DNA of 32,000 nucleotides from Candidatus Saccharimonadota bacterium (GTDB lineage: Bacteria > Patescibacteriota > Gracilibacteria > UBA4473), in NCBI GenBank assembly GCA_965228485.1, contig OZ245819.1:780001-812000 (forward strand), given 5' to 3'. The notes beneath the pieces were generated by a model. The model did not search any database. It had not been told where the DNA came from and saw nothing but the letters and a program-made list of their open reading frames with translations. Position numbers and translations under genes: made by a program. Each line of letters starts with the position of its first letter. Position 1 is the stretch's first letter. Below, in pieces: positions 2 to 27,427 of this stretch.

Positions 2-2068
2 AGAAGAATCCCGGAGGTTCTTGATTGTTGGTTTGAGAGCGGAAGTATGCCCTATGCCAGCAGACATTTTCCATTTGAAAAAGAACATGATCAGTCTGCA
101 CAAGACTTCCGAAGTGCCAACTTTATTTCCGAAGGGATGGACCAAACTCGAGGGTGGTTTTACACTCTTCACGTTCTAGGAACGGCTTTGTTTGGTAAAA
201 ACATCTTCGATAATGTCATCTGTAGTGGAATAGTTTTGGCAGAAGACGGAGAAAAAATGTCAAAATCCAAAAAAAACTATCCTGACCCAGGACTAATCTT
301 TGAAAAATATGGAGCGGATGCCATGCGTTTTTACCTTCTACAATCTCCTGTGGCAACAAAAGGAGAAAATCTAAAATTTTCAGAAAGGGAAGTTGAGGAA
401 GTTCTAAAAAATATCATTCTTCCATTAAAAAATGCATACCAGTTTTTATCAATGTATGCCAATATCGATGGTTGGGCACCAACGAAGTTTACACTTATCC
501 GACACGGAGAGGCTGAGCACAATGTAGCCCGCATCTATTCTGGGAAAGCCTCAAACCCACACCATTTAACCAAAGATGGGAAAGTTCAAGCTGAAAAATT
601 AGCCCAGAACATTACCCCAGTAGACGTCCTTGTGGCTTCTCCACTAGTACGGACACAAGAGACCGCTAAAGTAATTGCCGAAGTACAAGGTTTTAACGAA
701 AAAATTATAACCGACGAACGATTTAAAGAAGTAGACTTTGGTGAACTTGAAGGGAGGACCTACATTGGACCAGAGCAAAGATTAAAAGAACCTTCTACCG
801 AGCCATTAGAATCAATTCAAAAACGTTCTCTGGCTGGACTCAAAGAATTAAAAGAAACTCATCAAGGTTCACACATCGGAATTGTAAGTCATGGAGGGAC
901 AATACGTAGCCTCCAAACAGCTTTACACGGAATCACGAAACAAGAAAAACACTTGGAGTTTCCAGCGATTGGAACTGGACAATCTCAGATTGCATTCTGC
1001 CCACCTGAAAGTGAAAATGAACTGGATCAATGGATTATGTCTGAATTACAGACACTAATTGAAAACTACAAAACAGACTTCGATCAATATGATACCGAAG
1101 GCGCGTGTAGGGCAATCTTGCCATTTATTGATAAACTAAATAATTGGTACTTGCGACGAAGCCGAAAGCGATTCTGGGCTGAAGGCTTGGATGCCGATAA
1201 GCAAAATGCCTACGAAACTCTACACTATACACTCTTTACGGTGAGTAAAATTCTAGCACCAATTATGCCATTTTTTGCTGATTGGCTTTACCAGAAAACT
1301 TCTGGTGAACAAAGTCGATCTGTTCATGTAGATTTTGTCCCATTTTCTATAACATCATATAAAAATGAAGCATTAGAAACAAAAGTGGGACTTGCTCGAG
1401 ACATTGTTCGGCTTGCCGCTTCTATTCGATCTCGTCAAAAAATAAAATTAAGACAACCACTACAAAAACTGCAGTTTGCTCTTACTCAAGAGGCGGATCT
1501 AGATCTTGAAACTATTGCCAATGAAGCCAATGTAAAAAAAGTTGAAATCCTCCAATCAGTTGATGGTATTGCTCAACAAATTATTAAAGTTGATGCCCGG
1601 AAAGTAGGACGAAAATTTGGAAAGAAAGTCCAAACATTAATCCAAGCAGGAAAGTCTGGTGATTTCAGTATCCTGCCAGACGGAAAAGTCGAAATCATGG
1701 ACGAAGTACTCGAAGCTGATGAATACGAGTTAGCTTTTATTACCGAAGAAGGAGTAGAGGCCGACGCCACCCCAGATGTAGTTGTGATTCTCAATACTGA
1801 AATAACAGAAGACTTAGCCCAAGAAGGACTTAGTCGAGAAGTTATCAGAAGTATTCAAGACTTAAGAAAACAAACCGGATTTGAAATTAGTGATCGCATT
1901 GAAATTATATTTGAAACTAATGATGAAATGCTCAAAACGATGTTTGTAAGTTTTGGGGATAACATTGCTCAAGAAGTTCTTGCTACAAATATTACAGAAG
2001 GATCGGGAGAACATCTCGTTGAAATTGAAGGAAGAAGCTTGAAGCTATCACTTAATAAACACTCATGA
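2..2068 (+). CDS. ileS: Isoleucyl-tRNA synthetase, 3' portion; the 5' end lies outside the window. Carries an internal inserted domain.
   Basis: The reading frame is open from nt 2 (RRIPEVLDCWFESGSMPYA...), so the ATG at 47 is internal. Has the class I KMSKS motif (GEKMSKSKKNYPDP), FISEGMDQTRGWFYTL, and an anticodon-binding region (LNNWYLRRSRKRFW), typical of type-2 IleRS. Confidence 0.93.
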   Translation, partial: RRIPEVLDCWFESGSMPYASRHFPFEKEHDQSAQDFRSANFISEGMDQTRGWFYTLHVLGTALFGKNIFDNVICSGIVLAEDGEKMSKSKKNYPDPGLIFEKYGADAMRFYLLQSPVATKGENLKFSEREVEEVLKNIILPLKNAYQFLSMYANIDGWAPTKFTLIRHGEAEHNVARIYSGKASNPHHLTKDGKVQAEKLAQNITPVDVLVASPLVRTQETAKVIAEVQGFNEKIITDERFKEVDFGELEGRTYIGPEQRLKEPSTEPLESIQKRSLAGLKELKETHQGSHIGIVSHGGTIRSLQTALHGITKQEKHLEFPAIGTGQSQIAFCPPESENELDQWIMSELQTLIENYKTDFDQYDTEGACRAILPFIDKLNNWYLRRSRKRFWAEGLDADKQNAYETLHYTLFTVSKILAPIMPFFADWLYQKTSGEQSRSVHVDFVPFSITSYKNEALETKVGLARDIVRLAASIRSRQKIKLRQPLQKLQFALTQEADLDLETIANEANVKKVEILQSVDGIAQQIIKVDARKVGRKFGKKVQTLIQAGKSGDFSILPDGKVEIMDEVLEADEYELAFITEEGVEADATPDVVVILNTEITEDLAQEGLSREVIRSIQDLRKQTGFEISDRIEIIFETNDEMLKTMFVSFGDNIAQEVLATNITEGSGEHLVEIEGRSLKLSLNKHS
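482..1006 (+). other. Histidine phosphatase (phosphoglycerate-mutase-like) domain inserted in-frame within IleRS
   Basis: FTLIRHGEAEHN (RHG at nt 500-508), ASPLVRTQETA, and IVSHGGTIRS (SHGG at nt 887-898). It lies between the IleRS segments ...SMYANIDGW and ...ELDQWIMSELQ. Confidence 0.8.
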
Positions 2069-2472
2069 AACCAAAAGTCTCTCTCATCAGTCTCGGGGTT
2101 AATGATTTAAAAATTGCTCGAAAATTTTATGAAGCCCTAGGTTTTGAAACTTTAACAGAAGAAAATACTGATAGTATTGTTTTTTTCAAACTGGCTAATG
2201 AAAATATGTTACTCGGACTTTATCCAAAAGATAAACTCGCTGAGGATGCTACTATTCCCAATGACGGCACCGGATTTTCTGGCTTTACCCTAGCACACAA
2301 TGTTGCTAATCCAGATCGTGTTGATCAGACTCTCCAAGAAGCCGTAAATGCCGGTGCAAAATTGGTAAAACCAGGGCAAAACGTCTTTTGGGGAGGATAT
2401 TCAGGATACTTTTCAGATCCAGATGGATTTTTATGGGAAGTAGCCCATAACCCTTTTATGGACCTCACATGA
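2065..2472 (+). CDS. VOC / glyoxalase-bleomycin-resistance family protein
   Basis: 135 aa. The N-terminal LISLGVNDLKIARKFYEALGFE and C-terminal GYFSDPDGFLWEVAHNP are typical of VOC beta-alpha-beta-beta-beta modules. ATGA overlap with ileS. Confidence 0.75.
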   Translation: MKPKVSLISLGVNDLKIARKFYEALGFETLTEENTDSIVFFKLANENMLLGLYPKDKLAEDATIPNDGTGFSGFTLAHNVANPDRVDQTLQEAVNAGAKLVKPGQNVFWGGYSGYFSDPDGFLWEVAHNPFMDLT

Positions 2473-2957
2473 AAACTGCAGAACTGATTTCTAGGTGGCT
2501 AGAGAATGAAAAAATTCCTTATGAAGTATTTCAACATCGAGCTTTCCACCGAGTAGAAGATACTATTGGAGAATATGAAAAGATGGGATTTTCTGATAAT
2601 AAGAGTCTGTTTTTAAGAGATGAAAAAAAACGGAAGTTTTTTCTTGTAGTTATGAAAGGAGAAACTCGAGCGGATCTAAAAAAAATTGCCGAAATTTTCG
2701 ATGAAAAACGGCTCAGCTTCGCCAATGACCAATTCTTAAATGACTATTTAAAAACAACACCAGGATCTGTATCACCATTAGGGCTAATTTTCGACATTAA
2801 TACCAGTATCCAGGTTTTATTTGATCAAGACTTATTAGATTCAGAATTTGTTGGGTTTCATCCCAATGACAACCAACAAACTTGGAAATTTTTGACGACT
2901 GATTTTGAAAAGTTTCTAGATTCTTTGCCTCACAATATAACTACCACTAGCCTATGA
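2469..2957 (+). CDS. YbaK/ProX-type aminoacyl-tRNA trans-editing deacylase domain protein
   Basis: 162 aa. KSLFLRDEKK...FLVV, a GSVSPLGL motif and the overall size match the YbaK/prolyl-tRNA synthetase-associated domain. ATGA overlaps on both sides. Confidence 0.72.
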   Translation: MKTAELISRWLENEKIPYEVFQHRAFHRVEDTIGEYEKMGFSDNKSLFLRDEKKRKFFLVVMKGETRADLKKIAEIFDEKRLSFANDQFLNDYLKTTPGSVSPLGLIFDINTSIQVLFDQDLLDSEFVGFHPNDNQQTWKFLTTDFEKFLDSLPHNITTTSL

Positions 2958-3529
2958 TACAATTGCAAAACCAAATCTATGTAATGCGCCACGGGCAGTC
3001 AGAAAATAATGTCCTAGGAATCGAATCCTGCCATATTGAAACTCAACAAAAATTTGGACTTACCGCTACTGGACAAGCCCAAGCACACCAAAGCGCCCAA
3101 CAGTTTTCTGAATTTGACATTATTTATAGCTCTCCTTTTCGAAGGGCCCAAGAAACTGCGGCCATCGTCCAAGAATATGCTCAGTGTGAAATTATAACCG
3201 AACACGGATTTCGTGAATATAATATGTGCTATTTTGATCAACGCCCGTATCACGAAGCCGATCAATATATTCATGATCCTGCTAATAATATTTTTAATAC
3301 CCCGGTTGGCAAAGGAGATAGCTTCTTGACTATGTACGATCGCATGAAAAATGCCTTACTAGAAGTTGATGATACTCACGAAAATCGATCTATTCTTGTT
3401 GTAAGCCACGGTTCTCCAATTGAAGCCTTACTGCAATTGATGAAAAACGAATGCAACGGCTTTGGACCTTTTGAAAATATCCCAAAAAACGCTGAAATAA
3501 TTCATCTCAATAACCTCCTATTTAAATGA
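2954..3529 (+). CDS. Histidine phosphatase family protein (PGAM-like), free-standing
   Basis: IYVMRHGQSENN (RHG), SSPFRRAQETA and LVVSHGSPIEAL (second catalytic His). 191 aa. Confidence 0.85.
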   Translation: MIQLQNQIYVMRHGQSENNVLGIESCHIETQQKFGLTATGQAQAHQSAQQFSEFDIIYSSPFRRAQETAAIVQEYAQCEIITEHGFREYNMCYFDQRPYHEADQYIHDPANNIFNTPVGKGDSFLTMYDRMKNALLEVDDTHENRSILVVSHGSPIEALLQLMKNECNGFGPFENIPKNAEIIHLNNLLFK

Positions 3530-4779
3530 TGTTTAACCAAAAAGTTGAAACCGTAAAAGAAAGCTTGAGAAGCCTCTTTCCTGCTACTCCACTACAGTAT
3601 AATCATTTTCTATCTAAAAAATATGAGGCTGATATTTACATAAAAAGAGAAGACCTTACTCCTGTACGAAGCTATAAAATTCGTGGAGCTTTTAACCTTA
3701 TTTCATCAATTTTAGAAGCCGATAAATCTGCCAATGAAGCTCAATTTGTTTGTGCTAGTGCGGGAAATCATGCTCAAGGATTCGCCTATGCCTGTAAATT
3801 TTTTAAAGTAAAAGGCACGGTTTTCATGCCCGTTACGACCCCCCAACAGAAAATTAATAAAACTCGAGTCTTTGGTGGAAAATATGTAGAGATAAAACTA
3901 ATAGGAGATATCTTCGACCAGGCATATATTGCCGCTCAAGAATTTTGCAAAGAAGTAAATGGAACTCTTGTTCCCCCTTTTGATCATCCTAAAATTATAG
4001 AGGGGCAGGCCACAGTGGCGGCAGAAATACTCAATCAAATAAAAGATCCTATCGATTATCTTGTTATGCCCGTTGGAGGTGGCGGATTATCAGCTGGAGC
4101 TTCTGAATTTTTTCGAGCAGCCTCTCCGCAAACCAAACTCATTTGCTGTGAACCAGCAGGAGCCCCAAGTCTAGCTAAAAATCTTACAGAAAAAAAACAT
4201 TTTTCTTTAGATTCTATAGATACTTTTGTTGATGGAGCCTCCGTCGCACTTATTGGAGAACACAATTACGAAATCCTCAGTAAAAATATTAAGGAGCCCG
4301 TAAAACTAGTGCCAGAAAATCGCCTTTGCTCAACTCTTTTAGAATTCTTAAATCATGAAGGAATCGTTCTTGAGCCAGCAGGAGCTCTTTCCATCGATGT
4401 ACTCAAAAATTTTGACCCAGCAGAACTCAAAAACAAAACTATTGTTTGTATTGCCTCCGGGGGAAACTTTGATTTTGAAAGACTCCCAGAAGTAAAAGAA
4501 CGATCTATGAAATATGAAGGATTAAAAAAATACTTCATACTCAGACTACCTCAACGTCCAGGAGCCTTGAGAGAGTTCTTGAATTTATTGGGGCCAAATG
4601 ATGATATTTCACGGTTTGAATACCTAAAAAAATCTTCTAAAAACTTTGGATCCATCTTGCTTGGGATAGAGACATCGAATAGAGACAATTTTGAGACCTT
4701 ACGTGAAACAATGGAGCAGCATGGATTCCGCATGAAAGACGTAACTCATGATGAGATTTTAGCAGACTTTATTATCTAA
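3526..4779 (+). CDS. ilvA: Threonine ammonia-lyase (threonine dehydratase), short form with one C-terminal regulatory domain
   Basis: PLP-dependent fold: IYIKREDLTPVRSYKIRGAFN, SAGNHAQG, and a GGGGL glycine loop. The C-terminal ~90 aa are ACT-like. At 417 aa it resembles the Bacillus-type IlvA. Confidence 0.9.
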   Translation: MMFNQKVETVKESLRSLFPATPLQYNHFLSKKYEADIYIKREDLTPVRSYKIRGAFNLISSILEADKSANEAQFVCASAGNHAQGFAYACKFFKVKGTVFMPVTTPQQKINKTRVFGGKYVEIKLIGDIFDQAYIAAQEFCKEVNGTLVPPFDHPKIIEGQATVAAEILNQIKDPIDYLVMPVGGGGLSAGASEFFRAASPQTKLICCEPAGAPSLAKNLTEKKHFSLDSIDTFVDGASVALIGEHNYEILSKNIKEPVKLVPENRLCSTLLEFLNHEGIVLEPAGALSIDVLKNFDPAELKNKTIVCIASGGNFDFERLPEVKERSMKYEGLKKYFILRLPQRPGALREFLNLLGPNDDISRFEYLKKSSKNFGSILLGIETSNRDNFETLRETMEQHGFRMKDVTHDEILADFII

Positions 4780-7196: not shown

Positions 7197-7303
7197 AGTC
7201 GAGATTAATGTCAAATCTTATTGATGTAGTACAAACGACTTTATCTTTTTTGTTTTCGCAAAAAATACGAATATTATGTGGCCAAATTTGTACAAACAAA
7301 AAC

Positions 7304-8605
7304 ATGGCTCCTTCTCAAACGGCTTTCGATAATTTTTTGAAGAATCTATACGAAGCGGCACAAATACTCTCTCTAGAAGATAAAATTGTTCAAAAAATAC
7401 AAACCCCCGAAAATATTTTTGAAAAAGAAATTAGCTTCAAACGAGACGATGGAACCATAGAGACTGTCAATGGTTATCGAGTACAACACAACTCTTCTCG
7501 AGGACCTTACAAAGGTGGTATACGATTTCACCCAGAAGCAGATCTAGAGGAGGTAAAAACTCTCGCTTCATTGATGAGCCTCAAATGTGCTGTTGTAAAT
7601 ATTCCCCTTGGAGGCGGAAAAGGAGGAGTCCAAGTAAATCCTAAGGGACTTTCTAAAAAAGAGCTTGAACAGCTTTCCCGAGCCTATTTTAAGGCCGGAA
7701 CTGAAGCCAAAATTTTTGGAGAACAAAAAGATATCCCCGCTCCTGATGTCTACACCAATCCTCAAGTGATGGCCTGGATGATGGATGAATATGAAACTAT
7801 CGTTGGCTACAAAGCCCCTGGAGTTATAACTGGGAAGCCAGTAGAAATCGGTGGAAGCCTTGGAAGAAACTACGCTACGGCTCAAGGGGGATTTTTTGTT
7901 CTTCAAGATTATCTTAAAAAAACAGGGAAAAAACCTGAAGAAACAACTATTGCTATCCAAGGATTTGGTAATGCTGGAGCTTATTTTGCAGAAATTGCTG
8001 ATCGAGCAGGATTTAGAGTTGTCGCTGCTAGTGACTCTAGTGGAGCTATTTTTTGTGCAGGAGATCAATGTGAAATTCCAAAACTTAAAGAGTATAAAAC
8101 AACCTTTGGATCCTTAAGGGGAAACTTTTGCGAGGGAGATCTTTGCGATATCGAAAAAATGTCTGCCGAGAAGGTAAAAATACTCACTAACGAAGAACTT
8201 TTGCATCTTGATGTAGACGTTTTAGTGCTTGCTGCACTCGATGGAGTGATTAACAAAGAAAATGCTGAGACGATAAAAGCTCCTATTATTCTAGAGCTAG
8301 CCAACGGACCAGTAACAAACGAAGCTGATCAAATTCTCTTTAAAAACGACATTACCGTTATTCCTGATATTTTGGCTAATGCTGGAGGAGTAACCGTTTC
8401 TTATTTTGAATGGGTTCAAAACAGGTCCGGTGATGTCTGGGAAGAAAATTATGTGAATGAAAAATTACACAAGGTTATGAGTAATGCCTTCACAGATTTA
8501 CTAAAAACCCAATCTAGTTACGAATCTATATCACTGCGTCAGGCCGCTTTTGTGTTATCACTCGAAAGAATTATAAACGCTATGCAACTAAGAGGTCAGC
8601 TCTAA
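7304..8605 (+). CDS. gdhA: Glutamate dehydrogenase (Glu/Leu/Phe/Val dehydrogenase family)
   Basis: GYRVQHNSSRGPYKGGIRFHP, NIPLGGGKGG (catalytic Lys region) and GFGNAG (Rossmann fold). The ORF opens at 7208, but family N-termini align with the Met at 7304 (MAPSQTAFDNF...). Confidence 0.9.
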   Translation: MAPSQTAFDNFLKNLYEAAQILSLEDKIVQKIQTPENIFEKEISFKRDDGTIETVNGYRVQHNSSRGPYKGGIRFHPEADLEEVKTLASLMSLKCAVVNIPLGGGKGGVQVNPKGLSKKELEQLSRAYFKAGTEAKIFGEQKDIPAPDVYTNPQVMAWMMDEYETIVGYKAPGVITGKPVEIGGSLGRNYATAQGGFFVLQDYLKKTGKKPEETTIAIQGFGNAGAYFAEIADRAGFRVVAASDSSGAIFCAGDQCEIPKLKEYKTTFGSLRGNFCEGDLCDIEKMSAEKVKILTNEELLHLDVDVLVLAALDGVINKENAETIKAPIILELANGPVTNEADQILFKNDITVIPDILANAGGVTVSYFEWVQNRSGDVWEENYVNEKLHKVMSNAFTDLLKTQSSYESISLRQAAFVLSLERIINAMQLRGQL

Positions 8606-9249
8606 CGATCCACAAAGCTTTTCTCTAGGGCATCAAAAGCTACCTGAATATCTGATCGATCAATATACACTGAAAACTCAGAATAGGTTGAGCTGGCTTC
8701 AATCACATTAATTCCCTGGAAAGTTAACACCCTTAGGATTGCATATAAAAATCCTGGCTGCTCAGCATAGGCCTTAGGAAATTTAACCACTAAAACGGCT
8801 ACCGAATTCTTTTCGTACTTAGCGGGTTCAGTCAACATTTCTCTTACTTCACTTTCCAAACGCTGTTCAAAAACGACGGTAAATTCATTCATTCCGTCCA
8901 TTAAACCAAAATAGCCGTTTCTACTTCTTACAAAGTGATGAAGTTTCTGTACTAACTTTCCAGTTCGATCATTTTTATAAAAAGTCATTGTCATCAGATT
9001 TGATTGAATCGTAATATTTTCAATTTCAAAATTTACTACAGACTTCAAAAATTTCATTTGTTGTTGTTGCAAACGAGAAAGACTCATCAAAATAGCGGAT
9101 GTTTTTACCTCTTTCTGAATTCGCACTTCCACCATTGGCTGTAAGAACTTTGCTAGCTGAGTGAGATTAAAAAGGCCATTTGAAATCCCAAAACTTAGTT
9201 GTGGATTTCCTTTAATTAGATCACGAACTACATCAGATATTTTTATCAT
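8602..9249 (-). CDS. ACT-domain-like small-molecule-binding protein (tentative)
   Basis: 215 aa. The C-terminal part (VAVLVVKFPKAYAEQPGFLYAILRVLTFQGINVIEASSTYSEFSVYIDRSD) looks like an ACT fold. No catalytic motifs recognised. Confidence 0.45.
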   Translation of the reverse strand: MIKISDVVRDLIKGNPQLSFGISNGLFNLTQLAKFLQPMVEVRIQKEVKTSAILMSLSRLQQQQMKFLKSVVNFEIENITIQSNLMTMTFYKNDRTGKLVQKLHHFVRSRNGYFGLMDGMNEFTVVFEQRLESEVREMLTEPAKYEKNSVAVLVVKFPKAYAEQPGFLYAILRVLTFQGINVIEASSTYSEFSVYIDRSDIQVAFDALEKSFVDR

Positions 9250-13571: not shown

Positions 13572-14822
13572 CTAGGCAAAATCAGGGTAAGCCATATACA
13601 GCTCTCCTGCATTTGGATTACAAAATAATCCGTTCTTTAGAATTTTTTCAATATCTTCGGTTTCTCCTGTATCACAAAAATCCCAAGCCTTGAATTGCCG
13701 TACCGTAATTTGTTTATCTAGAACCTGATAAAGTTGTTCTGATAAATGTAACGCTTCATCGTCCTCAAAAAGAGAAACAAGAACTTGGTTTGGTTTTGGG
13801 GAAAATAAAACAGACTGCTCTTTGTTGGGATTAGCGAGTATACCTGTGTCTAAAATTTCTTTTTCAGAAACTTCACCAGAAATAGCATAAACTACCGATT
13901 TATTAAGCTCTAAACTATGTCCAACAATATTTTCTGCGGTACTTTTTACAGAAAAATTCTCATTATCAGTAATAATTAATTTTTTTTCTAGGTAGAGGGT
14001 TCCCGATGCTTTTTCAAGCTTTTTAACCTCAGGAGCTGCTTGTGACGATAGATCTCCAATCTCAACAGAACTAGGGGAAGCACTCTTCAATATCCAATCC
14101 TTCATAGAGGCTAAAACCTGATCCCCTTCAGTGAGTTTATAAAACCTCTCTGGATGAGGCATTATCGCTCCAATAGTTCCTTCTGCATTTACAATCATGG
14201 CAACCGCTGACTTTGCTCCATTTGGAGTCACTGGGTATTTTTCTGAGACTTTTCCAGTTTCATCACAATATCGAAACGCCACATGCTGATTTGAATCGAG
14301 AGCAGACAACACTTCTGGTTTTTGAGTCGTAAAACGACCCTCTCCATGAGCAATAGGTACTTTTATAACTTCCTGACATCCTTGAGTAAAAGCCGTGTCG
14401 GTTCTTTCAACTTTTAAGTTACACCATACATTATAATATCCGGTACCAATAACATGATCCTCAGTATCACGTCTAACATTTTCTGCTAACGATAAAGGCA
14501 GAGAATCTCCTGCAATTGGAATAAGTCCTGACTCCACAATCATTTGAGCGCCATTACAAATTCCTAAGATAAGTTTTCCTTTCTTCGCTTCTTTCCTTAA
14601 AGCGTCAAAAATTGGCTCTCTGGCGGCAATAGAACCTGATCTTCCTCGATCTTCAAAAGAGAAACCTCCCGGTAAAATATAAGCATCAAAATTGTCCACT
14701 CTATCTATTTCGTTCCAACGCAAAATTTCAGCATCGAAACCATTTCTTCGTGCAGCACGAGCAGTTTCTATTTCACAATTATTTCCAGGAAAGGCGATAA
14801 CAGCTAATGTAGGATTTTTCAC
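13572..14822 (-). CDS. purQ: FGAM synthase glutaminase subunit PurQ fused to a C-terminal tandem PurS-like region
   Basis: GTG start. Class I amidotransferase motifs: FPGNNCE, GICNGAQ (nucleophile Cys) and MPHPER. Residues ~274-413 form two PurS-like repeats, each ending in an (L/F)xNPN motif (GILANPNKEQ and GLFCNPNAGE). Confidence 0.85.
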   Translation of the reverse strand: MKNPTLAVIAFPGNNCEIETARAARRNGFDAEILRWNEIDRVDNFDAYILPGGFSFEDRGRSGSIAAREPIFDALRKEAKKGKLILGICNGAQMIVESGLIPIAGDSLPLSLAENVRRDTEDHVIGTGYYNVWCNLKVERTDTAFTQGCQEVIKVPIAHGEGRFTTQKPEVLSALDSNQHVAFRYCDETGKVSEKYPVTPNGAKSAVAMIVNAEGTIGAIMPHPERFYKLTEGDQVLASMKDWILKSASPSSVEIGDLSSQAAPEVKKLEKASGTLYLEKKLIITDNENFSVKSTAENIVGHSLELNKSVVYAISGEVSEKEILDTGILANPNKEQSVLFSPKPNQVLVSLFEDDEALHLSEQLYQVLDKQITVRQFKAWDFCDTGETEDIEKILKNGLFCNPNAGELYMAYPDFA

Positions 14823-23476: not shown

Positions 23477-26400
23477 TTATTCAGAAATTCCAGCTGATTG
23501 ACTTGGAAGTACTAGTTCAAAACCATTTAGGTATTGACCTGCTCCTCCATTATTTGATCGATCAGACCAAACGATAGAGTCTCCTGAACCAACTGCACCA
23601 GCTGTACCAGCAGCACTAACCGCTGTAGCATCATTTACAAGAGTACCCGTCACACTATCATTATCAGAAGCTCCGTTGTTGTAACCACCTTGAATTCGTA
23701 CTTCGTAGTAGTTAGTTCCATCAACTTCGTCGCCCATTCCAGTAAATGCAACATCAACAGATCCTGCAACCAAAGTTGCAGTTACACCTGTAACTAGATC
23801 AGTAGGTGTACCAGAGTAATCAGAACTTGAATATTTAACTAGGTCAAATGTTTCAGCTCCATTAGCAATTACGTCGACAGCTGAAGAAGTCACTTTAACC
23901 GTAACATCTTCTAGGATTGCTTCGTAAGCAGCATCATTAGACACCGTGAATCGGTAAATCGCCGCTTCACCAGCTGTAGATACGAAAGATGGTTGAGAAG
24001 CCGCGTTAGCGAATGTCAACATTGTTCGATAAGCCACATAGCTTTCTGATCCATTTGTATTATTAACAACACTTGTTAAATCAGAACCAGTAGAAGCTGT
24101 AACCGCTTCTACACCAGTAGTAGCTTCCGAAAGATCAGATACTACTCGTAGTCGTTGAGCTGTTTGAGATGCTTCGGTAATGTCTCGAGCATCAACTTTT
24201 AGAGTAACTGTTGTAGAGTTATCTTTTGGAACTTGGATTCGATCAGCATTAGCTAATTCAAAGTGAAGTTGCCCTCCTGTCATTTGTTTCGTTTGGATTA
24301 GGTTTCCAGCTTCATCGTAAAGTTTGAAGTTGAATCGATCTCCTCCGTCTGAATCAAGAGCAGAAACCGTAGCTGCAGCAGTGTAATCCACCGTACCAGC
24401 AGCACTATAAGTTGCATTTGGAGCAGTAAAAGCTGTTACTGTTGCAACTGTAGTAGGAAGACCTGCTTCTTCGATAACAATTTTATCTCCAACAGCAAAA
24501 GTAACTCCCCCTGCATCTACTACATCATCTGCTGTAGCATTGTCAGTTTGGATTGCTGGATCCGCCCCTACCGTAGTTGGAGCAGAAGAAGCATTTACAA
24601 AGTAAAAATCTTTAACTTCTACGTCATCGTTAGCGGCAGAAAGTCGGATTTTGTAAACCTCAATTTCTGTAGAGTTAGCTACGATAATGTTCGTAGAGTT
24701 AACGATAGTCGCTCCATCAGCAATAGTAAGCGTTCCTGATTGGACAAAAGTGTATGTTACAGAATCTACTGAATCTGTCCCAATAGTATCACCTAGAGCA
24801 GTACTTGTCCCAGCAAGATGAACTTCTACTTCATTACCGTTCTCTACATTGTCAGCGTTTGCTGCTGTAACAGAAATAGCAACATCATCAGAAGCACCTG
24901 TACCATCAGCTAGTGATTCCAGTGTATCCACTACTAGTTCAAATTCTTTTTGACCTGCAGATGGGATAACCACTGATAGGTCATTGAATGTAGCTTCACC
25001 AGAAGTGTTAAGGTTTCGAGATGAACCTTGTTGTACACCATCTACGAAAATTGCAGCTGTATATTCACCATAATTCTCGGCAGCACTAGTAGCAGTAGCA
25101 TTAGCTTCAATCGAAATTGAAGTAACATTTACATCTCCTGAATCATTGTTATCGAGAACAAATTTCATGAAAGTAACGTCATCTACTCCCGCTACGATAG
25201 TTTCAGCAGAGAAACCATCAGTTCGAGCGATTTCAAGAATAGATTGTTGTACTTCTACAAAAGAAGCTACTGCAGAACCAAGAACTTGGTCCGCAGGGAT
25301 TTGGTCTCCTGTAGAGATGTACTCTGGAGAATCAAATGCTGTTTTAGCGATTTGAAGTTTGATACCATCTGCATTATCTGCAGAGCTGTCAACATTACCT
25401 ACAAGCTTAATTACTGAAGTTCCAGCAAGTTCGAATGTAGTGTTGAAATCTAGGTAAGCATTCCCAGCAGTACCAGGAACAGCTCCCATAGCAGTACCTC
25501 CAAATTCGTTTTCTGTATCGATTAGTTTGTCGTTAACATAAAGTCGGAAATTATCAAAAGCGCCATTCAAACCAGCAAGAGTTGTAAGGTCTGTATTATC
25601 AGCTGGAGTCGTACCATTTGCAATAGCATTAACTTCAACTTTAACTCCATCAACGATCACTGGTTGATCAACGACTACTCGAGCCGTTAGGAATACAACA
25701 TCGTTAGAACCAGGAGCGTACTCTTGGTTAGATAGAGATGAAGGATCTCGTGAAATGTTGATGTCTCCTGCGTCAATAGTGTACATAGTTAGACGAGCAC
25801 AATCATCTTCAGCGTCATCACCAGAAGCACAAGTTACTCCTGTACCAGTAGTTTTAGTGCTGTCAGATGGGTCGATTTGAAGACCATCCCCATCAGACTT
25901 AGCTCGTACTCCGAATGCTGTACCGATTTCAACCGCTACAACGTCTTCGAAGTTATCAACCTTGAAGTTGATTGTATCTCCTTTTTCAGCAGAAACGATG
26001 TCTGTTCGGATAGAGAAGATTTTAGAGTCTCCGTCTTCGATGATGTAACCACCAGTTACACCGTTATCAAGTCGGAAAGTAACGTAGTCTCCGTCGATGA
26101 TAGTTTCAGCAGAAACTTGTTCACCAGAAACGTATAGACCAACATTTTCAAGAGTGTCTTCTAGTTCAGCGGTACCATCATTTTTGAAAGTAATAGCTCG
26201 AACTTCAACATCTTTATTAGTTGTAGATTGGTTTTCCATTTTGAATTTACCGATCTCAACGAAAGCATCACCAACTTCTACAGTTGTATCTGAACCAAGT
26301 TCGTCGAACTCCATAGATGTAACTTCGTAGCTAGCGATTTCCATTTCTTCACCTTCAACTGGGAAGTCTCCAGCAATGTTTGCTGCAGAAGAAACGATGT

Positions 26401-27427
26401 CATCAGCCGAAACAAGAACGAATCGGTTGTGGTGACCAGTATTTGTGTCTGTGTCAGAGAACTTCATAGAAGCAACAACATCAGCAACGATAGTTTGTCC
26501 AGCAGGAACAACGATAGGTGGGTTGAATCGTAGTTCAACAACATCATCATTGTTTACTGATTTATCGTTACCAACTTTGAATCCGTCAATTTCTAACCAA
26601 ACGTTTTCAAAATCGTCGTTGTCCCCTAGACCTAGACGAGTGAAAGTCATAGAAGAAATTTCTACGTCAGCATCATCAGAAGCTGTTAGCTCAACAGTAG
26701 TGAACGGAACTGAAGTAGCGTTGAAAGGAATGTTTGTTCCTCGTGGAGTATCATTAGATAGAGCCACTTCAACAGTACCTTCAGCGATTCCGTTGAATCC
26801 ACCAAGAGCTACCAGTTGACAATCGTAAACGATTTTAACAGTTTCAGCACGTGTTACAGCGTTTCCAGGACCGAAAGTCCCGTCACCGTAACCTCGCATA
26901 CAACCGTTGTTGTAGATAGTTTCTACGTAACCGTAGAACCAGTCTCCTGAAGTAACGTCATCAAAATGAGGTGCTCCAGAAAGGTCTTGATCAAGTTCAA
27001 AACCATTTACAACCATTTTAGCGATTTCAGCTCGGTTGATTCCAACACCTGGTCGGAACATTCCGTCTGGGTAACCGTTAATCCATCCTTGGTTGTACAT
27101 TGTTTCGATGTAGTCGTAGAACCAAGCTTCTTCAGCCACATCTGGGAAGTGAGGACCTCCCGTAGTATCCATATCGATTCCAGTAGCAAGAACGATGATT
27201 TTAGATACTTCCGCTCGATTTAGTTGTCGATTTGGTGCGAAAGAACCGTCATCATTTCCTCCTACAACTCCTTGGTCCATAAGTTCTTCAATCGCTTCTT
27301 CAGCCCAAGATGGGATTTCAGCGTCATCTGTGAATCCTAGAGAGGCAGCAGAAGCTACTCCGAAGAAAGCCACAGAAGAAAGAGCTACAGACGCAAGTCC
27401 TTTTTGTAAATGCGTAAGCAATTCCAT
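23477..27427 (-). CDS. Large secreted S-layer / surface protein with three N-terminal SLH domains
   Basis: Signal peptide (...FFGVASAAS). Three SLH repeats (aa ~32-82, 93-142, 153-201), each with W/F..Y..........G...G...G.F.P....NRAE. Then ~1100 aa of acidic, Thr/Val/Ala/Asp-rich sequence in recurring ~110-130 aa modules. Confidence 0.85.
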   Translation of the reverse strand: MELLTHLQKGLASVALSSVAFFGVASAASLGFTDDAEIPSWAEEAIEELMDQGVVGGNDDGSFAPNRQLNRAEVSKIIVLATGIDMDTTGGPHFPDVAEEAWFYDYIETMYNQGWINGYPDGMFRPGVGINRAEIAKMVVNGFELDQDLSGAPHFDDVTSGDWFYGYVETIYNNGCMRGYGDGTFGPGNAVTRAETVKIVYDCQLVALGGFNGIAEGTVEVALSNDTPRGTNIPFNATSVPFTTVELTASDDADVEISSMTFTRLGLGDNDDFENVWLEIDGFKVGNDKSVNNDDVVELRFNPPIVVPAGQTIVADVVASMKFSDTDTNTGHHNRFVLVSADDIVSSAANIAGDFPVEGEEMEIASYEVTSMEFDELGSDTTVEVGDAFVEIGKFKMENQSTTNKDVEVRAITFKNDGTAELEDTLENVGLYVSGEQVSAETIIDGDYVTFRLDNGVTGGYIIEDGDSKIFSIRTDIVSAEKGDTINFKVDNFEDVVAVEIGTAFGVRAKSDGDGLQIDPSDSTKTTGTGVTCASGDDAEDDCARLTMYTIDAGDINISRDPSSLSNQEYAPGSNDVVFLTARVVVDQPVIVDGVKVEVNAIANGTTPADNTDLTTLAGLNGAFDNFRLYVNDKLIDTENEFGGTAMGAVPGTAGNAYLDFNTTFELAGTSVIKLVGNVDSSADNADGIKLQIAKTAFDSPEYISTGDQIPADQVLGSAVASFVEVQQSILEIARTDGFSAETIVAGVDDVTFMKFVLDNNDSGDVNVTSISIEANATATSAAENYGEYTAAIFVDGVQQGSSRNLNTSGEATFNDLSVVIPSAGQKEFELVVDTLESLADGTGASDDVAISVTAANADNVENGNEVEVHLAGTSTALGDTIGTDSVDSVTYTFVQSGTLTIADGATIVNSTNIIVANSTEIEVYKIRLSAANDDVEVKDFYFVNASSAPTTVGADPAIQTDNATADDVVDAGGVTFAVGDKIVIEEAGLPTTVATVTAFTAPNATYSAAGTVDYTAAATVSALDSDGGDRFNFKLYDEAGNLIQTKQMTGGQLHFELANADRIQVPKDNSTTVTLKVDARDITEASQTAQRLRVVSDLSEATTGVEAVTASTGSDLTSVVNNTNGSESYVAYRTMLTFANAASQPSFVSTAGEAAIYRFTVSNDAAYEAILEDVTVKVTSSAVDVIANGAETFDLVKYSSSDYSGTPTDLVTGVTATLVAGSVDVAFTGMGDEVDGTNYYEVRIQGGYNNGASDNDSVTGTLVNDATAVSAAGTAGAVGSGDSIVWSDRSNNGGAGQYLNGFELVLPSQSAGISE

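Follow-up and report, generated by a model that had tools for sequence, protein, structure and literature searches.

The window analysed here is a stretch of 32,000 nucleotides from a Candidatus Saccharimonadota bacterium (assembly GCA_965228485.1, contig OZ245819.1, positions 780,001 to 812,000 of the forward strand). Its first gene is ileS, which encodes isoleucyl-tRNA synthetase (IleRS), and inside this gene we find a histidine phosphatase domain nested in frame between the catalytic body and the anticodon-binding domain of the synthetase. As read from the open reading frames (ORFs) of the window, no stop interrupts frame 2 of the + strand between nt 2 and the TGA at 2066-2068, and positions 2-2068(+) encode a 688-residue C-terminal fragment of the enzyme. 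The gene enters the window midway, at RRIPEVLDCWF, with its N-terminal ~515 residues lying outside, and the left edge of the window is exactly the boundary of another IleRS insertion site (s2, described below). TGA is the stop in 5 of the 30 window ORFs, ileS among them, and the window therefore uses the standard code.

The C-terminal part of the IleRS catalytic (Rossmann/SC-fold) body occupies 2-475(+) (fragment residues 1-158), as delimited by the tRNA-synt_1 model, by alignment to the structure 8c9d and by an AlphaFold2 (AF2) model. It carries KMSKS at 254-268 (residues 85-89) and ends, in the AF2 model, with a long helix (residues 128-156) followed by the motif YANIDGW (455-475). The synthetase resumes at NELDQW (1016-1033), where the helical anticodon-binding domain begins (NELDQWIMSEL). 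This domain, together with the type-2 C-terminal domain DUF5915, spans 1016-2068(+) by Pfam and the 8c9d alignment, with the motif LNNWYLRRSRKRFW at 1136-1177. Pfam matches on the fragment are tRNA-synt_1 at residues 2-118, Anticodon_1 at 342-489 and DUF5915 at 503-686. The closest Protein Data Bank (PDB) structure is IleRS2 (8c9d, E 7e-91), and the best NCBIfam models are ileS, MupA and MupB, which score below cutoff because the visible protein is a fragment with an insert. Judged by its KMSKS motif, helical anticodon-binding domain and type-2 C-terminal domain, the host is a type-2 (eukaryote-like, mupirocin-resistant type) bacterial IleRS, to which the window protein aligns over its whole visible length. 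Full-length relatives that bear the insert (P0003, P0131 and P0133) keep the HIGH motif, as HYGH, and the editing motifs WTTTPWT and GTGIVH, and KMSKS is likewise kept.

Between these two parts, at 476-1015(+) (residues 159-338), lies a His_Phos_1 domain of the PhoE type together with two short linkers, its Pfam core covering residues 164-315 (nt 491-946). Pfam, the 8c9d alignment, the AF2 model and Foldseek all contributed to this delimitation. The insert places ~180 residues where a loop of ~6-12 residues would run from the KMSKS/SC-fold helix to the anticodon-binding domain. Query residues 1-162 align to 8c9d 508-665 and residues 339-655 to 672-995, which gives ~175 residues in place of ~6 and matches the length estimated in a preliminary description of this locus. 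Among the 120 best homologues (MAFFT alignment), the loop at this position has 9-20 residues in insert-less relatives and 175-203 residues in 15 relatives, a difference well outside what chance would give. The match to His_Phos_1 (Pfam PF00300) is strong (E 8.2e-31; 107.6 bits against a gathering cutoff of 21.7) and covers profile positions 2-165 of 194. The preliminary description had proposed a complete histidine phosphatase domain in an uninterrupted frame between the catalytic body and the anticodon-binding domain, and hidden Markov models (HMMs), alignment, structure prediction and relatives agree with it.

The insert carries the full set of catalytic motifs expected of a histidine phosphatase. 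RHG lies at 500-508(+) and contributes R167, H168 (the predicted phospho-accepting nucleophile) and G169, with N174 (521-523) following it. SPLVRTQETA (638-667), a form of SPLxRxxETA in which S, R and T are invariant, holds the second phosphate-binding arginine, R217 (nt 650-652). KEVDFGELEG (725-754) contains E243 (728-730), the predicted general acid/base glutamate, which corresponds to invariant column E87 of A1 and E82 of A2. Finally, SHGG (887-898) supplies the second catalytic histidine, H297 (nt 890-892), which is also invariant. The positions given for RHG and SHGG in the preliminary description are exact. R167, H168, G169, N174, R217, E243 and H297 are invariant in the 16 IleRS with an insert at the window's site, and 26 nested copies drawn from every insertion site keep the same set without exception. 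Yet the insert shares only 30-42% identity with its relatives, compared with 62-76% for the flanking catalytic core. Invariance of the catalytic residues despite such fast divergence is a signature of selection on catalysis.

Structure prediction supports an insert that folds on its own. Modelled in isolation with 15 homologues, the segment reached an AF2 predicted local distance difference test score (pLDDT) of 94 and a predicted template modelling score (pTM) of 0.90. The model of the whole 688-residue fragment scored pLDDT 89 and pTM 0.86, with confidence of 94-98 across both junctions. In that model, helix 128-156 leads through a 5-residue linker into strand 162-167, and strand 328-331 leads through an 8-residue linker into helix 340-361, attaching the domain to a surface loop. 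The top Foldseek match of the predicted structure is PhoE (1h2e; probability 1.00, TMq 0.81), followed by CobC (6e4b), PspA (4ij6), the Entamoeba histolytica phosphoserine phosphatase (6m1x), a riboflavin-pathway HFP (9mmh) and GpgP (4qih); the longer cofactor-dependent phosphoglycerate mutases (dPGM) rank below these short phosphatases. We obtained 304 PDB matches to the insert at E<=1e-3, and the best 50 of the 304 all belong to the histidine phosphatase family. No NCBIfam equivalog (dPGM, GpmB, CobC, PspA or SixA) comes near its cutoff for the window insert, with ribazole_cobC at 78.5 against 162.9 and PspA at 59 against 350, and the likeness to CobC and PspA is limited to fold. By sequence and model, the insert is a complete branch-1 histidine phosphatase with a predicted alpha/beta/alpha sandwich fold.

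An architecture of this kind might arise if a frameshift or an assembly chimera joined an IleRS gene to an unrelated phosphatase gene, and the metagenome-type origin of the sequence invites the suspicion. However, contigs from NCBI, JGI, ENA and Logan, all assembled independently, carry IleRS with the same in-frame junctions; they are assigned to Candidatus Gracilibacteria, Peregrinibacteria and Peribacteria and are in some cases 0.28-1.06 Mb long. These contigs share the junctions and flanking motifs, and their inserts are only 30-47% identical. The IleRS sequence also picks up exactly at the end of the loop in the 8c9d alignment. The G+C content of the insert (0.41-0.43) equals that of its flanks, and we saw no compositional anomaly across it. 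We therefore give an artefact essentially no weight. An intein or other self-splicing insertion was rejected as well: Pfam reported no intein family in the insert, finding only His_Phos_1, and the fold is that of a complete metabolic enzyme. A known IleRS-specific loop was likewise rejected, since the region is a phosphatase fold. Of the three outcomes that the preliminary description named as refuting, a known IleRS-specific insertion, loss of the catalytic residues and misassembly at the junctions, none was observed. An imperfect direct repeat of 10 nt (90% identical) flanks the insert, with ATCAATGTAT at 448-457 and ATCAATGGAT at 1026-1035. The first copy ends in the first codon of YANIDGW and the second spans the last three codons of NELDQW, both being coding sequence outside the insert. 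The pair is compatible with chance, and beyond it we found no junction repeats hinting at an insertion mechanism.

We searched a junction-spanning query against 1.84 billion representatives and drew local HMM layouts, examining 266 proteins. Of these, 127 are full or partial IleRS sequences that hold one or more nested His_Phos domains. His_Phos domains occur in 41 of the 120 best IleRS homologues, in some of them at a site other than the window's. Mapped on P0062/8c8v, insertions fall in four or more loops. Site s1, the commonest, lies within the Cys4 zinc knuckle, directly before DLHKPYIDEV; s2 directly follows the knuckle, before RIPEVLDCWFESG; s2b is the HYPFEN...FPADFIAEG loop; and s3, at the junction of the SC-fold and the anticodon-binding domain, is the site occupied in the window. 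The s2b loop of the window IleRS is uninterrupted, and its visible 688 residues hold one nested domain. Its nearest full-length relatives have an insert at s3 only (P0003, with 1203 residues, and P0005; ~1200 residues) or at s2b and s3 (P0131, 1379 residues). The s3 copy of P0131 is the closest to the window insert (47% identity, bootstrap 56).

Copy number and domain family vary too. At least two His_Phos copies occur in 13 proteins. P0060 has three and P0035, P0042 and P0131 have two each, as confirmed by Pfam, and P0139 apparently has four. The 1419-residue form represented by P0133 recurs in six assemblies, once on a 1.06-Mb contig. Other enzymes are nested in the same way: GNAT in P0001, P0144, P0155 and P0209, a Ser_hydrolase alpha/beta domain in P0134, an AAA_18/AAA_33 P-loop domain in P0153 and a Nudix box (GGKVEKWESLEKALYRETKEELG) in P0252. 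P0144 is 1859 residues long, and its segments 670-905, 933-1022 and 1579-1727 have no Pfam match. Overall, small enzyme domains have been gained, multiplied and lost time and again at several loops in the IleRS of Gracilibacteria, Absconditabacteria and Peregrinibacteria, and His_Phos is by far the most frequent nested family, with GNAT, Nudix, alpha/beta-hydrolase and P-loop domains also present.

Among the nearest relatives of this phosphatase type within the 1.84 billion representatives, IleRS is the exclusive host of the nested domain. A word-indexed search for homologues, queried with just the insert, yielded no more than 10 free-standing phosphatases, and a profile of 26 nested copies matched generic PhoE-like proteins; both searches are uninformative on fusions to other synthetases. 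The representative search also ranked, among the nearest relatives of the nested copies, free-standing proteins of ~405-430 residues made of two tandem His_Phos domains (P0157, P0159, P0163, P0166 and about 30 others). The multi-copy inserts could stem from such proteins or could have given rise to them.

Two of the relatives' loci call for comment on their reading frames. Upstream of P0060 (L028 5506-10435), the IleRS N-terminus is encoded in another frame as a 484-residue ORF. The conserved DWAISRNRYWG motif continues into the frame of the downstream gene, and therefore a frameshift, be it an assembly error or real, splits the ~1620-residue P0060 gene in the L028 metagenome-assembled genome. 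In L022 (Candidatus Gracilibacteria), the tRNA_edit gene at 13627-14208 has an in-frame stop under table 11, as would fit the UGA=Gly code found in some Gracilibacteria. Taken with the TGA stops of the window, this indicates that nested-phosphatase IleRS would span lineages with both genetic codes.

The domain has been lost as well as gained. Insert-bearing and insert-less IleRS are interleaved in a neighbour-joining (NJ) tree of the host sequence. The insert-less P0008 (L029 8001-11321) is as similar to the window protein as any insert-bearing relative (59% in A3) and is nested among them in the NJ tree. Its s3 loop is 34 residues long (GWKPKEFSFLPCDILDD...) and opens with GWKPKEFSFL, compared with GWQPTKFLMLRHG in relatives. 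We read this loop as a deletion remnant that kept the linker and strand beta1 and lost the remainder of the phosphatase, and on that reading a working IleRS can do without the phosphatase. Directly downstream of the P0008 ileS, on the opposite strand, is a free-standing Ser_hydrolase-like gene; between its product and the hydrolase nested in P0134, no similarity could be detected. We also built NJ trees of the nested domains, with the aim of distinguishing one insertion followed by intragenic hopping from several independent captures. These trees resolve shallow nodes only: shallow site-specific clades have bootstrap values of 77-100, and the deep nodes are without support.

The ileS gene of the window heads a run of closely packed genes on the + strand. 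Four genes follow it in a block at 2065-4779, joined by 4-nt ATGA start/stop overlaps at 2065, 2469, 2954 and 3526, the first of which sets the ileS TGA stop (2066-2068) over the ATG of the next gene. By Pfam, they encode a VOC/glyoxalase-family protein (2065-2472), a YbaK-like tRNA_edit protein with a weak YbaK_EbsC match (2469-2957) and a free-standing His_Phos_1 paralogue of 191 residues (2954-3529, E 3.9e-33). The last is the threonine ammonia-lyase IlvA (from 3526 to the block end at 4779; 580 bits against a cutoff of 421). The ileS operon is thus tightly coupled, with an isoleucine theme. The free-standing phosphatase, 900 bp downstream of the nested copy, is 29% identical to it (BLASTP E 1e-16). 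It scores best against the s2b copies of P0131 and P0133 (32-34% identity, 85-90 bits, compared with 70 bits for the window insert), with which it groups in the NJ tree at bootstrap values of 8-26%. This gives a weak hint that one phosphatase module may occur in either form, inside IleRS or as a gene of the operon. In the relative L022, too, ileS is followed by a YbaK-like trans-editing (tRNA_edit) gene; that case aside, no partner, be it a kinase or a toxin, is conserved in the ileS neighbourhoods of the relatives examined, and PADLOC returned no defence match.

Farther along the window, a few kilobases from ilvA, lie an amino-acid dehydrogenase of the Glu/Leu/Phe/Val family (7208-8605, +) and, convergent with it, an ACT-domain protein (8602-9249, -). 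These add a branched-chain amino-acid flavour to the region. A protein of 1316 residues at 23477-27427(-) has three S-layer homology (SLH) repeats near its N-terminus as its only Pfam matches, leaving ~1100 residues without annotation. SLH proteins adjoin ileS in the relatives L025 and L028 too.

The window protein joins an architecture that had been noticed before. The preliminary description held that no IleRS of this design had been described; this does not stand, as Kantor et al. 2013 (PMC3812714) mention an "unusual isoleucine-tRNA synthetase" in SR1/ACD80, in which four regions are separated by one Nudix and two phosphoglycerate mutase (PGM) domains. That mention fills one sentence and gives no sites, residues or distribution. 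The IleRS of SR1 (Absconditabacteria) and ACD80 resembles the window protein in carrying in-frame domains of the phosphoglycerate mutase (histidine phosphatase) family, and it belongs to the same broad group of the candidate phyla radiation (CPR). It differs in its Nudix and two PGM domains, compared with the one nested His_Phos at the SC-fold/anticodon-domain junction in the visible part of the window protein. The SR1/ACD80 organisms also use a UGA=Gly code, whereas the window organism uses TGA as a stop. We found no earlier analysis of this architecture in the literature searched, and full-text searches found no functional study of a phosphatase-bearing IleRS. Nor did the literature searched describe the range of insertion sites, the presence of more than one copy, the variety of nested enzyme families, the remnants of lost domains, the invariant catalytic residues or the assignment to phosphatases rather than mutases.

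Other known systems share one part of the design or the other. The IleRS2 of Priestia megaterium (8c9d) and the IleRS of Thermus thermophilus (1ile) have KMSKS and the helical anticodon-binding and type-2 C-terminal domains as in the window, but a loop of ~6-10 residues stands where the window has a 180-residue enzyme domain. The best structural matches of the insert, namely PhoE/YhfR of Geobacillus stearothermophilus (1h2e, 1ebb), CobC, PspA, GpgP and HFP (TMq 0.73-0.81), are of the same size class, have the same RHGxxxxN ... R ... E ... H set and probably share the phospho-histidine mechanism. These are free-standing enzymes of ~200 residues with assigned substrates, whereas the insert is nested and only 25-28% identical to them. 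A curated IleRS with an extra small-molecule enzyme domain already exists as NCBIfam NF040702 (ileS_w_GNAT, [quoted passage not shown]), against which the window protein scores 55.9 bits with a cutoff of 1999, and its visible part has no GNAT. The fragment also matched NF005567, the NCBIfam model of the Rv2228c-type bifunctional RNase H/acid phosphatase. There, His_Phos is likewise fused to a nucleic-acid enzyme, but end to end and with another partner, whereas the window copy is nested. Class-Ia synthetases are recognised as nested-domain hosts (PMC13114784). The window insert is nested in a class-Ia synthetase, as are the CP1 editing domain and other connective-peptide insertions; CP1, however, is ancient, universal and mechanistically integrated for proofreading.

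We think it likely that the insert is an autonomous, catalytically competent phosphomonoesterase of the PhoE type that is tethered to IleRS and not required by it. Such an enzyme would hydrolyse phosphomonoesters by way of phosphorylated His168, and E243 would serve as the general acid. It would be co-translated with the synthetase and remain outside the aminoacylation mechanism; we take it to be autonomous because site, copy number and family vary among relatives and deletion of the domain is tolerated. By fold topology, both attachment points lie away from the end of strand beta1 that bears the RHG loop, which makes a solvent-facing pocket probable. The likeliest physiological substrate is a small phosphorylated metabolite or nucleotide, rather than 2,3-bisphosphoglycerate or 3-phosphoglycerate. 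Several points weigh against this interpretation. The solvent-facing orientation derives from fold topology and not from coordinates, the activity of the nested phosphatases is predicted from sequence and modelled structure, and the NJ trees behind the inference of gain and loss have weak deep support. The window gene is visible from its C-terminal 688 residues, with HIGH, the editing site and the Nudix, s1 and s2 sites lying upstream, where the gene may have further nested domains or defects. An exclusive IleRS host among the nearest relatives of this phosphatase type and repeated insertion are hard to square with a mere passenger, and they hint at a tie to IleRS, isoleucine or tRNA-Ile.

That tie is the core of a different proposal, in which the phosphatase is functionally coupled to IleRS and forms, with the GNAT, Nudix, hydrolase and kinase inserts of relatives, a built-in protective or salvage toolkit. 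The target would be something that the synthetase makes, binds or is harmed by: speculatively, an adenylate mimic or a phosphorylated inhibitor, a by-product nucleotide, a tRNA-Ile whose 3' end is damaged or phosphorylated, or a phosphorylated IleRS residue. The roles suggested in the preliminary description, namely hydrolysis of Ap4A-type nucleotides or phospho-amino acids and regulation, are speculative too, and none of the analyses points to a specific substrate. Beyond the constancy of the host, coupling would account for recurrent insertion at four or more loops round the C-terminal half of the catalytic body, for the retention of multiple copies and for the second His_Phos gene kept in the window's ileS operon. 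GNAT, alpha/beta-hydrolase, P-loop and Nudix chemistries are typical of small-molecule modification and detoxification, and patchy gain and loss with fast evolution fit an arms-race trait. However, variation in site, copy number and domain family disfavours a precise geometric coupling, the domain was deleted in the close relative P0008, and there is neither a PADLOC match nor a conserved kinase or toxin partner in the gene neighbourhoods. No IleRS ligand or inhibitor is known to be a phosphomonoester, which also counts against coupling. We regard this proposal as unlikely, if worth keeping in view. We are more doubtful of its broadest form, in which IleRS serves the Gracilibacteria-Absconditabacteria-Peregrinibacteria as a dedicated scaffold. 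There, small hydrolases and transferases captured at no fewer than four or five loops would work with the synthetase as a built-in system for destroying toxins or adenylate mimics, cleaning up nucleotides or repairing tRNA-Ile, and in some genomes, the window included, equivalent modules would be encoded in the ileS operon.

Two further readings concern the chemistry of the domain itself. The labels used by JGI and by Kantor et al. imply that the insert is the organism's cofactor-dependent phosphoglycerate mutase. It does share the superfamily and the RHG...N signature of such mutases, database entries use the name "bisphosphoglycerate-dependent phosphoglycerate mutase", PMC3812714 speaks of "phosphoglycerate mutase domains", and NCBIfam gives a weak similarity to dPGM_arch (73.9 bits). 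Against the dPGM models, however, scores of 73.9, 55.1 and 32 fall far below cutoffs of 225 (dPGM_arch), 261 (GpmB) and 316. A dPGM is ~230-250 residues long, whereas the domain has ~175 and its nearest structures are phosphatases of ~200. The insert also reads EVDFGELEG and SHGG where dPGM enzymes have ERHYG and HGNS. Gracilibacteria and Absconditabacteria are reported to be without most of glycolysis, so that the neighbouring glycolytic enzymes are largely missing (PMC8406219, PMC7304191), and a single pathway step gives no reason for two to four copies per protein. The insert is thus unlikely to act as a mutase in glycolysis, and we give very little credence to the insert being the organism's own mutase. 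The preliminary description had called the domain PGAM-like; Foldseek, the NCBIfam scores and the scarcity of glycolytic enzymes in these lineages point instead to a PhoE-type phosphatase rather than a mutase. A catalytically inert pseudo-phosphatase, acting as a structural spacer, a phospho-ligand sensor or an RNA- or protein-binding surface, would explain why the insert evolves faster than its host (30-42% versus 62-76% identity) and is dispensable in P0008. Yet R, H, N, R, E and H are invariant across copies that sit at different sites and share only ~25-40% identity, and we consider an inert domain highly improbable, though a sensor with intact chemistry is conceivable.

Aminoacyl-tRNA synthetases are among the most conserved enzymes, and new catalytic domains nested in a bacterial core enzyme are rare. 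In eukaryotes, the study of domains added to synthetases has usually exposed new biology, such as editing, signalling or resistance. Here, the hosts are uncultured, host-dependent and poorly understood bacteria, in which an essential synthetase carries a phosphatase predicted to be active. Proteins of such design in the CPR are currently labelled "isoleucine--tRNA ligase" or mis-split by gene callers. If the nested phosphatases are passengers, they offer a natural experiment in domain-insertion tolerance, of use to protein engineering and to CPR genome annotation. If they are instead coupled to IleRS, they would represent a new mode of protecting or servicing translation, and if IleRS is a dedicated scaffold, a new class of synthetase-embedded protective enzymology.

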